Source: Octopus vulgaris (taxonomy: Eukaryota). From it: a DNA stretch of 64,000 nucleotides. Below are positions 16,565 through 59,975 of this stretch, in pieces. The DNA lies in assembly GCA_951406725.2 (NCBI GenBank), contig OX597819.1, forward strand, positions 17,422,001 to 17,486,000, written 5' to 3'. The position numbers were made by a program, and so were the translations under genes. The notes below the pieces were generated by a model. The model had not been told where the DNA came from and did not search any database. It saw only the letters and a program-made list of their open reading frames with translations. The number at the start of each line of letters is the position of its first letter. Position 1 is the first letter of the stretch.

Positions 16565-18072
16565 CCTTTATTTTTCCATTTGCTCACCCCACCCCCGTTA
16601 CCACTTTGTAACCGGTGTTGGATTGTTTATATCCCAAAAACTCAGTGGTTCGGCAAAAGAGATCTATGCAATAAGTACCAGGCTGGAGCAATTTGTTCGC
16701 CTGGAGTCATCAAGTTGGGTACCCCACAGGACCGCAAGTCAATAACGGAAACGCGTATAAGTTGGAAGTTATATGCGTATGTGTGTGCTTGCATAAGTAC
16801 TCAATCATGCACACACACACACACACACACACATACGCACACATACACGCATATACATGGATACACATACATGAGGCAAATATTGGCTACTACTCTCATG
16901 ACCCAGCAGCCAACCGAAGGAGATTAACGCACAGCAGCATGGGAATTTTGTAAGAAAGATGTGAAATTACAAAACTGATACCATAACGGATTCATTTGAT
17001 TAAAAAGAAAATATATTTCCCGTTGTCATACAGCATGACTAAATCGACTTAAAACAGGTGAAACCTGTGTCATATTTTGATTAGAATGTAAATATATTAT
17101 TTCTGCGACATATGATCAAACTCTTATGATTTACCGCGTTTTGTGTTTTTGACACAATGAAGCAGAGATCTGGCAGAATCATTCCGTACCGAAAAAAAAG
17201 TGGTGGGTGGCATTTCTTCCAATTTTATGTTCCGAGATCAAGTTCCGCTGAGAATATTTGCATGAGAAAGAGGAAGAGAAAAGGGGAAGGGAAAAAGGGA
17301 AAGAAAGAAAAACGTAAATAATACACAGGTAGATACAGAGCAATACACAAACACTAGACATATATGCACTTACTTGTGATAGCTATGAGAAATAGAGAAA
17401 GATGCAAAATAATAGATAAATAAATAAGTAAATAAATAAGCCCCAGCATGGCCACAGCTCGTGAGCTGAAACTAGATGAAATATATATATACATCTGTGA
17501 TAAATGTAAAACAGAGATGGATAAAATAAATGAATAAAATCATATAAATGGCATGGATACATACGAAGTGAACCCATATACACACAGACAAACACTCACA
17601 CATGAAATATCATGGACGGCCGTATGCTGTCAGCAACACAACTAACACGGTCTTACGAGTAGCAAAGGACCACGTTTCGTACTTCTCCCACTGGACGAAG
17701 ACAGCTACGCTCAACAGCAACCGCAGCAGCAGCACAATGGGGTGACAGGTTGGAGTCGAGGGGAAGGCCACACTGCTGCTAAGATCTATGACACACACAC
17801 ACAAGCATACACACACACACACACACAAGGACACAAATGCATCCACATATAAAGATACACATCTTAGAAGAAAAGAATGGACTGGAGCAAGAAGACACAC
17901 GGAAACGAAATGTATGACTGAAGAAGTCACAGATGTGTGACGAAAAATTTCGGGACGATGGACAGTCATTAAATAATAAAATCATAGTAATGAACGAGTG
18001 AAGAAAAATTATAGTACGTGTGTTAATTTGGGAAACAAAAAACAAACAAAAATAAAATGACCATCTCGAAAT

Positions 18073-24949: not shown

Positions 24950-24995
24950 CAGCGGCTGACGACGTGAATATTCACCGAAACCTTAGGTAGCTTGA
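24950..24995 (+). ncRNA. Hammerhead motif, partly decayed
   Basis: CTGACGA 24956-24962; stem II GTGAA/TTCAC; GAAAC-CTTAG-GTA 24977-24989; stem I is weak. Confidence 0.55.

Positions 24996-37973: not shown

Positions 37974-37977
<4 letters not shown>
37791..37977 (-). mobile_element. PLE-like terminus of the CTGTNGAA hammerhead-like family
   Basis: Minus: CTTT-CTGTTGAA-GAGC-ATAG-GCAC-GAAACATA-AAGG; homologous to 29300-29468; TA-rich repeats on both sides. Confidence 0.7.
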
Positions 37978-38012
<35 letters not shown>

Positions 38013-38163
38013 TGACGTATATTTGCCATCTCAATATGGCTACCCCTAAGGGTGGATGCTACTGTAGTTTTAGCCCCAGGAGGACACACTCTTCCAGCTG
38101 GCCATAGACACACTTTCTGTGTCCTGTCAGTATTTGCAAAGGGAAGTCATCCTTCCCGTCTTC

Positions 38164-38231
38164 AACTTATGATACACACGGACTCGAGTTTCGAGGTATT
38201 GACCTCTCGTCAGCGTGTGACAATCATAGTT
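38164..38231 (-). ncRNA. Intact type I hammerhead ribozyme
   Basis: Exact reverse complement of 38708-38775. Confidence 0.93.
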
Positions 38232-38707
38232 GTCGGCGAGAATTAGATTTCCTTCACAAATACTTATACTTTTTCCAGCGTCCACTGTCGCTGATATTGA
38301 AAAAGTGAAATCAAACAATGATAAATATCAAAGTGAGTTATATACAGTAGCGGTAACACATCGTGACGTATATTTGCCATCTCAATATGGCTACCCCTAA
38401 GGGTGGATGCTACTGTAGTTTTTAGCCCCAGGGAAGGATGACTTCCCTTTGCAAATACTGACAGGACACAGAAAGTGTGTCTATGACCAGCTGGAGGAGT
38501 GTGTCCTCCTGGGGCTAAAACTACAGTAGCATCCACCCTTAGGGGTAGCCATATTGAGATGGCAAATATACGTCACGATGTGTTACCGCTACTGTATATA
38601 ACTCACTTTGATATTTATCATTGTTTGATTTCACTTTTTCAATATCAGCGACAGTGGACGCTGGAAAAAGTATAAGTATTTGTGAAGGAAATCTAATTCT
38701 CGCCGAC

Positions 38708-38775
38708 AACTATGATTGTCACACGCTGACGAGAGGTCAATACCTCGAAACTCGAGTCCGTGTGTATCATAAGTT
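38708..38775 (+). ncRNA. Intact type I hammerhead ribozyme
   Basis: CACACG-CTGACGA-GAGGT-CAAT-ACCTC-GAAAC-TCGA-GTC-CGTGTG; stem I extends via TATGAT/ATCATA past an internal loop; predicted cleavage after 38758. Confidence 0.95.
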
Positions 38776-38971
38776 GAAGACGGGAAGGATGACTTCCCTT
38801 TGCAAATACTGACAGGACACAGAAAGTGTGTCTATGGCCAGCTGGAGGAGTGTGTCCTCCTGGGGCTAAAAACTACAGTAGCATCCACCCTTAGGGGTAG
38901 CCATATTGAGATGGCAAATATACGTCACGATGTGTTACCGCTACTGTATATAACTCACTTTGATATTTATC

Positions 38972-39008
<37 letters not shown>

Positions 39009-39013
<5 letters not shown>

Positions 39014-46735: not shown

Positions 46736-47836
46736 TACATACTTCTCATAGCCTTGTGAGCGGATTTGGTAGTCGGAAAATTGTACTGATTTGTATACCC
46801 ATAAATTTTTACGCAAAAGTTTGTGTTCAGACATGCCATGACATTGTATAATGGTTATAATAATGACTCTTCGTAAACAACTCTGAAATATACACTTCCA
46901 TCGAATTAGCCAGTGGCTGAGCATTCAGCAGAGCTCTGGTATTCCATAATTTAGTGTGTGTGTGTGTGTGACACACTGTGCACTTTATGACTTTCACATA
47001 AATTGCACCCAACCATCTTCGATTCATCTGCCATTTACCGCATCTGACTTAAAAAGGAATAACTGAAACCGAGGCCTTTGGAAAATAACATCTAATTACA
47101 TATATATGTCGTCCCATCGCCGTTCCGCAACATTTGAGATGAGATTTTACCACTGTTTTCTTTCTTACACTCCTATATTTTGCTTCCTTTTGGGGTCAAT
47201 TAGCTCTTGTGAATCTAATCTTATTTTCCATACGCCTCACATATGTTTCAGTTGCTTGGCGACATATACCCGTCCCTTCGTTGCGAGTTCAAATTGTGCC
47301 GAAGGCGACTTTGCTTTTCGTCCTTTTGGGGGTCGATGAATTAAGTACCAGTTAAGAAATTGGGTCGATCTGATCGACCTACCCCAACCTCCGAAGTTGC
47401 TGGCCTTGTGCTAAAGTTTGATACGAATATTGGAATTCAGCATCATCGTTTCTTTTCCTTTCCGCTTTCTTCACATCTTCTGAACTTCATATTCGTCTTC
47501 CATTTCCACCCAACATCATTCTCTCCTGGATTTCGGAGAGAGAATCACTTCCTTGCTTGTAGACTGACGAGATCTTCCAGAGAGAAAATCAGAAACGATG
47601 AGAACGAATAACAAGTTTGCTACTTTGTAGCTTTATAAACAAATGAAATTCGGTGAATTTATTTTTGATTTTTTACAGAATGTGTGTCTAAATATGTGTA
47701 TATATATGTGTATGTATGGGTATCTGTGAGAATGTATGTCTCGATGTACATGCATGTGTGTGTATGTGTTGCTGATTCGTGTGTGTGTGTGTGTGGTTGC
47801 ATTTACTACGAATGAAATATCCTTAGGTATAAGTGA

Positions 47837-48433: not shown

Positions 48434-49250
48434 AGTTAGTTAGTTAGTTAATTTGGCTCAAAAGCAAATAGCAAGGCCATGTAGGGGGACATGGAGTTAA
48501 GTACAGGGTGGTGTTCATGTAAAGAGTTCAGGCCACTTGAGGTCCAGGGAGGCTTTGAACAAAGCGGTCGTCGGCATCTTCACCATCTCATCTGGCAGCT
48601 TGTTCCACGGATCCGCAACCCGGACGGAGAAAGCTCCTCTCCTTCGATTGAGATGAAATCGTCGCAGGTAGAGCTTTTCGGAATGACCCCGCAGCCGACG
48701 CTCCGGAGCAGGAGTGAAGAACAGCTCTTTCGAGAGGTTACACTTCCCGCTTATGATGTTGTGGGCGAGAATGAGATCACCACGGCGGCGGCGTTTTTCA
48801 AGAGAATAAAGGTCGAGCGTCCTCAGCCTTTCTTCGTAGGACAAATTTTTGAGACCATGAACCAGGCGGGTAGCCAGCCTCTGGACTCTTTCGAGGTGCT
48901 GTATGTCTTTGAGGAGATAAGGAGAAGAGGCTTGAATCCCATACTCCAATATGGGTCTCACCAGCGTGACATAGAGTGGCAGGAATATGGCTGCTGTGAG
49001 CACTCCGAATGACCGTCGAATCAAAAACAGAATTCCGCGCGCTTTGTTGGCAGCATGGACGCACTGGGCCGAAGGCGAAAAGGAGGAATCCACCAAGATA
49101 CCCAGGTCCTTTACCTGATCGGTCCTCTCCAGCAGCAGACGACCCGGCTCGAAATCAAGTTGAGTTGCAGGAGTAGAGCCGACAGGCAGATGACAGCACT
49201 TTGACACGTTCAGACACAGGTCCCAATCGTTAGACCACTTCCAAATTTGG
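48431..49250 (-). mobile_element. 5'-truncated CR1-like LINE (ORF2 RT C-terminus, 3' UTR, (TAAC)n tail)
   Basis: Open frame WSNDWDLCLNVSKC...KDLGILVD...LYVTLVRPILEY...LERVQRLATR...SYEERL...RRRGDLI...WNKLP; stop at 48515; (TAAC)5 tail; TA repeats on both sides. Confidence 0.92.
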
Positions 49251-50865: not shown

Positions 50866-50933
<68 letters not shown>

Positions 50934-50944
50934 TTATATAGAAG

Positions 50945-50997
50945 GAGCTTCTACAGGACTAGAACTGTTTCATTCAAGAGAAATCTTCAGGAAGCTC
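50945..50997 (-). ncRNA. Compact type I hammerhead ribozyme
   Basis: Minus: GAGCTTC-CTGAAGA-TTTC-TCTT-GAAT-GAA-ACAG-TTCTAGTC-CTGT-A-GAAGCTC; 7-bp stem I, 4-bp stem III, GUA triplet; overlaps a palindrome at 50960-51031. Confidence 0.82.
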
Positions 50998-51137
50998 TTC
51001 CTGAAGATTTCTCTTGAATGAAACAGTTCTATGGGAATGTACAAACAGTTCATTTATATAAAACTGATAGTTTGGGGGGGTTTTGTTTAGAGTAGGAAAA
51101 CAATGTACTGTGGTTAACCCCGAATCAACCCGGGACC

Positions 51138-59132: not shown

Positions 59133-59975
59133 CTAGCAGAATTGCCCGGCGTTGCTCGGGGCTGAATTGCTTGAAAGTACTGTTAATGATTGCACTGAAT
59201 TATGATGATTATTCAGGCAAATATTGATATAAGTTTACGGTGGGAGATAAGGACTTAACGATAAAACGTGTGCCATTGCATTGTTTTGGGGGAACCAAAT
59301 TTCTGATGAGCATTATAGGGGCACCAACTTCAAGTTTGAGAAAGTGTGGTGGTAGTCCGGGGTGCTCAAAGGAAGTGAGTACCTCTATTGGATAGTTGAT
59401 GACGTCCTCTGGGTCAGGAGTTGTATCGATAGACTGATATACATAGACTTCCCCAGGAATGAGTTTTAGCATTTCATCATTAATATGGTGAACAGTTTTA
59501 TTCCTCGGGGCCAGTATAGCCTTTTTGCCAATCCAATCCATATTCTGATAATTAGCTTGTAGATCTGGGAACACTGCATCTCTGAGATCAGAAGGCGTCT
59601 TAACAATGGTACAAATGGAATCGATGGCAATATTACCATTTTCATCCCCTGGTATTTTGCCTTCGCCAAGTGCAAGGAGGGTGTGAGGAAATGCTGCTGA
59701 TGTGATATTATGTCGCATATGAGCACGCATATTGGTGTGAAGTTTGAGAGTTACTTCCCTTTATTTAAAAAATATGCATTAAAATGGAAAAAATGATGGT
59801 AAATTATTTGTAAAATCATAGACTCATCGTAGACGCGCGCTAATACCCAGAAGGGCTCGATATGAATCACGACTATAAGATACCCGGTTTTGGTTAAACT
59901 GCATTGCAAAATGTAGGAGTAGTTAGGAATCTAAATCGGAGTAGACAGACACACAACCTTTCTTTTATATATAAA
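59133..59975 (-). mobile_element. Non-autonomous Helitron
   Basis: Minus 3' end CCCGAGCAACGCCGGG hairpin plus CTAG|T; 5' end A|TTTATATATAAAAG; internal PIF1 helicase fragment. Confidence 0.85.
59209..59730 (-). pseudogene. Helitron RepHel PIF1-family helicase fragment
   Basis: LLALGEG...AILAPRN...IND...YQSIDT...GLPPHFLKLEVGAPIMLIRNL...CNGTR are PIF1 helicase motifs. Confidence 0.9.

Follow-up and report, generated by a model that had tools for sequence, protein, structure and literature searches.

Animal non-LTR retrozymes are non-coding units of 150 to 450 bp, repeated head to tail, that carry a canonical type I hammerhead with a short stem III. The available text of PMC7229834 describes elements that lack an LTR layout, have TSDs longer than 4 bp, are predicted to fold into stable circles, and co-exist with Penelope-like elements (PLEs); self-cleavage and circles are demonstrated there for the retrozymes of coral, mussel, and axolotl. 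As the route by which such elements reach new sites, that text proposes PLEs, on the basis of co-existence, together with circular templates. A 2026 preprint by Li, Clavereau, and Pollet (10.64898/2026.07.22.740005), which covers 35 species (vertebrates, insects, and one coral), adds co-occurrence and homology to PLE pseudo-LTRs (pLTRs). In its available portion the mechanism is called unresolved, and 3' ends, tails, and inversions are left unanalysed. The class itself, the circles formed by its members, and the hypothesis that PLEs mobilise them are already in print in these two sources.

EN+ PLEs, as described in the available portions of PMC3846280 and PMC8557442, have two fixed 3' ends, an optional tail of 30 to 40 nt on one end only, 5' truncation, and an inverted, head-to-head arm joined through microhomology; they target microsatellites and have TSDs of about 8 to 10 bp. 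Frangieh et al. (2024; PMC11167929) identified the tail as the stretch between two internal start sites of the reverse transcriptase (RT) and found each of the two DNA strands to be both cut and extended. In that in vitro system the RT starts internally and accepts uncleaved RNA, hammerhead cleavage is unnecessary, and the two start sites are used without strand bias. We use the word "tail" for PLE ends as it appears in PMC11167929 and in the available parts of PMC8557442 and PMC3846280. Non-autonomous PLE dependants are also on record. The MRC1-type elements of Chlamys form insertions of multiple copies set head to tail and have 3' sequence in common with their partner, and most Chlamys elements in the available account of PMC8557442 lack canonical hammerheads.

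Here we describe an element with features of all of these systems, found in a 64,000-nt stretch of Octopus vulgaris DNA (the window). An earlier note, made from the letters of the window alone, had proposed about 1.2 units on the minus strand joined to about 1.55 units on the plus strand within (TA)n, and this layout was borne out. The minus arm (38009-38432, 1.21 units) has its 5' end at unit position 78 and terminates 3' at position 150, the "short" site; the plus arm (38431-38974, 1.55 units) has its 5' end at position 1 and terminates 3' at position 193, the "long" site. Unit positions are numbered from window position 38431 as 1, with predicted cleavage after position 329. The arms, 425 and 545 nt in aligned length, overlap by 2 nt at a central head-to-head junction with 2-nt microhomology (38431-38432). 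A PLE-type tail, the approximately 43 nt that separate the short and long 3' ends, is present on the plus arm only (38932-38974). The insertion lies between a left (TA)n target tract at 37977-38008 (repeat call, 37977-38010) and a right one at 38975-39009 (repeat call, 38974-39009), and its outer ends are ambiguous by 1 to 2 nt because the unit and the target share AT. One full unit occupies 38431-38781 on the plus strand. The monomer length of 351 nt given in the earlier note holds for this copy but not for the usual unit, which is 352 to 353 nt long in most copies. Both arms are 99.5 to 99.6% identical to a genomic 352-nt unit, and one A is missing from an A-run in one unit per arm. Each arm has only one hammerhead, at 38175-38219 on the minus strand and at 38720-38764 on the plus strand, which makes the window copy a dead-end daughter, unable to release monomers. 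Two consecutive hammerhead-bearing units, by which the available text of the preprint recognizes active elements, are absent from this copy. The possibility that the locus is an assembly chimera is excluded because the same inverted anatomy recurs at 37 independent loci with different break points.

The wider family was surveyed in a 2.8-Gb assembly of 227 contigs. A search with the unit returned 3,094 candidates, of which the best 40 were scored, and the full-length matches were 97 to 100% identical, in agreement with the young age that had been proposed for the insertion. The exact young hammerhead occurs in 441 genomic copies and older hammerhead types in 509, with no match to either reversed-pattern control. 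A looser hammerhead pattern gave 912 matches, a count that exceeds the true family size because 7 of 61 inspected loci lacked a match to the unit. The copies are spread across many contigs, with scattered 5' ends and arrays of at most 6 units per arm, and at least two predicted cleavage sites are passed in 54 of 124 arms. The longest ATG frame round the circle has 38 codons, consistent with the earlier report of no recognizable ORF, and there is no LTR-internal-LTR arrangement. An RT/GIY-YIG frame is absent from the window, and none is joined to the unit in the 170 loci screened. The window element thus belongs to a young, dispersed, non-coding hammerhead retrozyme family.

At the level of sequence, this element fits every feature tested for animal non-LTR retrozymes, with cleavage and circles as predictions. 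The nearest relatives by description in the available text of PMC7229834 are the 350- to 390-nt mussel families, whose circles of that size are already demonstrated, and the 331- and 353-nt axolotl families; those retrozymes have been taken to the bench, while the octopus unit is known from its sequence. Where the PLE partner was proposed there from co-existence, the octopus insertions themselves bear the marks of PLEs, tail and inversion. They likewise share with EN+ PLEs the fixed 3' ends, single-end tail, 5' truncation, inversions, microhomology, and microsatellite targets outlined above. Compared with the published portions available on those PLEs, the octopus unit lacks an ORF, its tail is 43 to 47 nt rather than 30 to 40 nt long, and its hammerhead is canonical rather than minimal; the last point also sets it apart from most of the Chlamys elements. 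A description of this family, or of the tail and inversion rule in any retrozyme, was not found in the literature searched, which lay outside most subscription journals, Dfam, and Repbase; metagenome contigs gave no match to the unit.

The type I hammerhead proposed in the earlier note was recovered on both arms as a full-length match to RF00163 (32.2 bits, E of 7.8e-6), below the gathering score of 34, a score that no family reached in an Rfam scan of the entire window. On the plus arm, the GUC triplet has its last base at 38758, after which cleavage is predicted. Stem I has 6 bp and extends beyond the internal loop, stem II has 5 bp, and stem III has 2 bp with a palindromic tetraloop. The minus polarity of the unit contains no hammerhead core pattern, other ribozyme types being covered by Rfam only, so the viroid-like feature of ribozymes in both polarities is absent. 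None of the 25 copies compared, which range from 66 to 100% identity, differs in the letters of the catalytic core, and GUA replaces GUC in one subfamily (3 of 25 rows). In a named 51-pair structure scored across the 25 copies, 93.8% of cells pair; both-sided changes occur at 8 of the 51 pairs, in 32 cells compared with 12 in shuffled controls that ignore relatedness. A stem II pair swaps between A-U and G-C (17 and 8 copies), and the outermost pair of that stem is disrupted in 15 of the 25 copies.

Folding predictions gave the unit far more stability than chance, with a z score of -4.95 as a linear molecule and, at -117.4 kcal/mol, of -7.7 as a circle (100 shuffles each). In the predicted circle, the active hammerhead fold lies 5.9 kcal/mol above the minimum and stem III has a pairing probability of 0.0 in the ensemble; the modelled monomer may therefore cleave itself poorly. 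Hammerheads with such short palindromic stems III usually require a dimer, according to the available text of PMC4209133, and 8 of 9 Xenopus retrozyme elements showed no cleavage in the available portion of the preprint 10.64898/2026.07.22.740005. No Pol III boxes were found when the unit was searched with the usual box patterns. A search for a tRNA gene was likewise negative.

The mode of insertion can be read from the ends of the copies. We mapped 85 young insertions, or 84 after one segmental duplicate was dropped (L091, which is the L086 insertion in a segmental duplication). The first 30 loci were the top-scoring matches, and a further subset came from position-ordered lists. Overlapping loci of one insertion, rows at positions 116/117 (an indel placement artefact), and L151 position 222 (a local hairpin inversion) were also left out of the counts. 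The 5' ends are scattered all round the unit, whereas the 3' ends are fixed at position 150 (short) or positions 192 to 197 (long), about 43 to 47 nt apart. Among the 37 non-redundant inverted insertions, 32 pair a short with a long end, none has two short or two long ends, and 5 have one off-site end. The 47 solo copies comprise 38 with short, 6 with long, and 3 with other ends. Short+long pairing was also seen in 21 of 24 inverted copies of the position-ordered subset, and older subfamilies have exactly one long end in 13 of 14 inverted copies. (TA)n flanks 69 of the 84 insertions on both sides, and TSDs of 7, 11, and 8 bp were found at three of five non-TA sites. At 24 of 38 central junctions the arms overlap by a few bases. 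Arm lengths fall off smoothly, up to 6 units, and of 124 arms, 92 exceed one unit in length, continuing into another unit and not into an ORF.

The strict short+long pairing suggests that one complex primes both DNA ends from two start sites. No inverted insertion with two canonical ends used the same site twice (0 of 32), in contrast to the lack of strand bias reported in vitro (PMC11167929). In a test of twin priming against fold-back copying, short+long pairs unable to nest numbered 6 of 30, compared with 8.4 under permutation (P of 0.20; L116, L156, and L091 excluded), a count that fits independent priming of both ends and that later central deletions could mimic. Some individual copies have peculiarities of their own. 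L156, which has an additional internal inversion, and L206 differ in contig, flanks, and haplotype and yet break at identical central points (positions 244 and 109), suggesting a hot spot of microhomology. The inverted copy at L197:1330-1556 has a long-end arm of only about 17 nt, and some apparently solo copies may hide a tiny second arm in the same way; a screen of the young solo copies for such arms found none.

The earlier note had attributed the copying, as probable, to a PLE reverse transcriptase, and the two fixed 3' ends, the tail on one end, the 5' truncations, the inverted arms, the TA microsatellite targets, and the TSDs of 7 to 11 bp all back this attribution. We hold with high confidence that PLE machinery mobilises the retrozyme. 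The same genome contains several young PLE families whose proteins have RT and GIY-YIG domains (Pfam) and a cysteine linker, a feature that the available text of PMC8557442 describes for the Neptune and Nematis clades. By domains and linker rather than by a tree, these families appear Neptune-like. PLE-A has 16 open 781-aa frames among 148 hits. For PLE-B, all 76 scored hits, the best of 30,321 candidates, were 100% identical over about 573 aa, and many copies have open 775-aa frames (L221-L250, G000); PLE-B is a very recent burst. Two further intact families encode proteins 784 and 753 aa long. Among homologues of a resident PLE protein, the few that are named belong to assemblies of symbionts whose hosts are clams. 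Copies of the resident families terminate in TA, at either a short or a long site (8 short and 17 long ends in PLE-B), and all four inverted PLE copies with both arms in view pair short with long (L043, L066, L068, and L078). Their ends bear minimal hammerhead variants, not the canonical type I of the retrozyme; degenerate minimal hammerheads in the 3' UTRs of L064, L228, L052, L261, and L264 differ from CUGA in their first core letters. In PLE-A a separate upstream frame of 479 aa (L064:1268-2704) overlaps the RT frame (L064:2626-4968) and had no convincing Pfam match; such PLEs have a single ORF in the published descriptions available. PLE-B (L228) also has a long sequence upstream of its RT frame.

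Which family serves as the partner is less clear from the tails. Tail lengths are about 33 to 44 nt in PLE-A, 30 in PLE-B, 37 in PLE-C, 38 in PLE-C2, 48 in PLE-E2, and 42 in PLE-H; length argues against PLE-B alone, and several other families fit. The likeness between the tail region of the unit and that of PLE-A gave p of 0.6 under one scoring and 0.003 to 0.015 under another, in which the PLE-A tail was the best-matching place within the 5.2-kb element. This weak and scoring-dependent likeness is a hint only, because it was first spotted by eye and is absent from older copies, none of 18 older tails reaching p of 0.05. Several loci that place the unit close to other sequence were considered as chimeras and rejected. 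Searched with two PLE proteins (tblastn), 6 of 170 retrozyme loci gave matches; four of them (L131, L161, L178, and L197) are separate insertions, and the matches at the other two lie more than 1 kb away. In L161 the unit joins the PLE 3' UTR about 65 nt before the PLE's own end, and since the copies of that family are 92 to 95% alike, we regard it as an insertion into an old PLE copy. TA separates the unit from the PLE in L197, L178, and L131. L201 (G000:C2:202401800-202408000) consists of unit fragments whose 5' end is joined to a long A/T-run satellite, the whole duplicated together; it was rejected as an ORF-bearing element, as its two hammerheads, 3.2 kb apart, enclose the satellite.

Our best explanation, which we put forward with moderate confidence, is a young non-LTR retrozyme that parasitises PLEs and is copied from a circular monomer. 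Genomic arrays with at least two hammerheads on the same strand would be transcribed and would cleave themselves into 352-nt monomers, to be ligated into circles. Judging from the scars, the RT/GIY-YIG protein of an active Neptune-like PLE would then nick both strands of a (TA)n tract, and cDNA synthesis would begin inside the RNA at position 150 and at positions 192 to 197, one site per DNA end. The RT would travel around the monomer, not pausing at the cleavage site, and drop off at random, leaving arms of 0.2 to 6 units, as observed. Extension of one end gives a solo copy, usually short-ended; when both ends are extended, the cDNAs meet head to head, usually through microhomology, to give the short+long inverted form. 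A more specific version is speculative, and we would sooner doubt than accept it: two RT subunits of one PLE complex would work on a single 352-nt circle, with one start site per strand, and the circle would be an independent structured RNA parasite, recognized by its fold and mobile through several subfamilies, rather than an offshoot of a pLTR.

An alternative keeps the element and the PLE machinery and replaces the template by an uncleaved linear multimer, or by monomers between which the RT jumps, with circles as a by-product; we consider this unlikely, though it deserves weight. The arms do cross the predicted cleavage site and continue into a further unit, as the earlier note had claimed, and 5' ends are not enriched there: 4 of 124 are no more than 5 nt from the site (3.9 expected; first-pass stops are under-sampled here, the loci having been chosen for containing a hammerhead), and among 80 second or later passes 2 end there (2.6 expected). 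The template is therefore continuous at the ribozyme junction, whether ligated or uncleaved. Read-through by itself is no proof of a circle, because the PLE RT starts internally on uncleaved RNA (PMC11167929) and because PLE-A also forms partial tandems, with no canonical hammerhead. The stronger evidence for monomers comes from 196 rare substitutions, defined as present in at most two insertions and scored at sites covered more than once. While 176 are in a single copy, 3 in both arms in one register, and 4 mixed, 13 are in all units, in 10 insertions and through 2 to 5 registers, reaching 5 of 5 and 6 of 6 copies. Since a linear array would confine a mutation to a single unit, these 13 favour repeated passage through a monomer, probably a circle. 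Heterogeneous linear multimers are also opposed by the smooth decay of arm lengths, by the finding of one private variant in register on both arms compared with 131 arm-specific calls, and by the lack of any insertion pair with more than one unit-specific variant in common in the same register. The exception is L152, where a private C/G variant, in register when counted from the 3' ends, is G,C,G,G along one arm and G,C along its partner, a pattern consistent with a heterogeneous linear multimer. In both L164 and L170, one arm has a private variant in its innermost unit only and the other arm has it too, as fold-back copying or gene conversion could produce. Homogeneous arrays would also yield homogeneous linear transcripts; jumps of the RT between identical linear monomers would be indistinguishable from a circle and escape these objections. 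Of the earlier claim of a circular or multimeric template, the monomer, probably circular, is thus favoured by the shared substitutions, and the inference from read-through does not stand on its own. Given the circles known for coral, mussel, and axolotl retrozymes (PMC7229834, available text), we regard a circular monomer template as fairly likely.

Two further alternatives concern the element itself. The unit might be a detached pLTR of an autonomous PLE, with the copies as its truncated 3' ends. In the available part of the preprint (10.64898/2026.07.22.740005), 24 of 57 Xenopus retrozyme families are homologous to Repbase elements, nearly all of them PLEs, and our PLE survey covers only the best candidates (76 of 30,321 scored in one search). 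The octopus unit differs from those families in having no homology (blastn) to the PLE ends in the 95 PLE loci examined, where it appears only as old copies outside the elements. The long arms run into the next unit, not into an ORF; the few PLE protein matches among the retrozyme loci are separate or distant, and the hammerheads are of different types. We therefore consider a pLTR origin very improbable. Still less credible is a satellite-like repeat in which the hammerhead is incidental and which unequal crossing-over or rolling-circle eccDNA has amplified at the DNA level. In its favour, units are more alike within insertions (0.57% divergence) than between them (1.64%, or 0.87% within a haplotype), and the preprint favours local tandem amplification in its available text. 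A satellite does not account for dispersed copies in short arrays or for an invariant catalytic core, and the fixed 3' and random 5' ends, the inversions, the TSDs, and an end rule that autonomous PLEs also follow largely refute it. The octopus arrays look as if they were made at insertion, not by later local amplification.

Among 24 listed sequencing runs that match the unit, none is recorded as RNA and 14 are only guessed to be RNA. Four runs were examined. One (X5) has a single 383-nt contig that closes a 352-nt loop (4 substitutions, 1 gap); the junction of this loop is also bridged in X1, X3, and X16, a large run of undefined kind. We did not count the closed contig as evidence of a circle or of expression, as tandem DNA makes the same bridge, which is seen in X16 too. 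More than half of the unit's words are present in 20 listed runs under eight coded organism labels; runs of two of the other labels among these were examined, and the unit was present in both. Near-identical sequence under eight organism labels leaves room for spread between species.

The element itself is no new kind of system, and the family offers unusually direct anatomical evidence for PLE mobilisation. It predicts cDNA starts at positions 150 and 192 to 197, one per DNA strand, at (TA)n targets and with no stop at the ribozyme junction. These predictions are directly testable, since the same genome contains several young PLE families with intact, near-identical ORFs and an assay for PLEs in vitro is already established. 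How PLE inversions originate is a further question on which the strict short+long pairing has a bearing.

Other hammerhead-like sequences were noted along the way. A second old, dispersed family (L112, L125, L127, L137, L141, and L147) resembles the retrozyme hammerhead in its stem III loop but is shorter in stem II; its copies are solo, with no PLE frame within about 2 kb. In the window, the bare hammerhead core pattern has 9 matches compared with 1.4 expected by chance. Five further core matches, at 17918-17945, 24956-24980, 47564-47595, 48796-48826, and 59303-59343, may be remnants of other repeats. At 50930-51040, a small palindromic insertion after a TA tract contains two inverted minimal-hammerhead-like motifs and looks like a PLE-end stump, and similar sequence is held by two other loci (L057 and L263).
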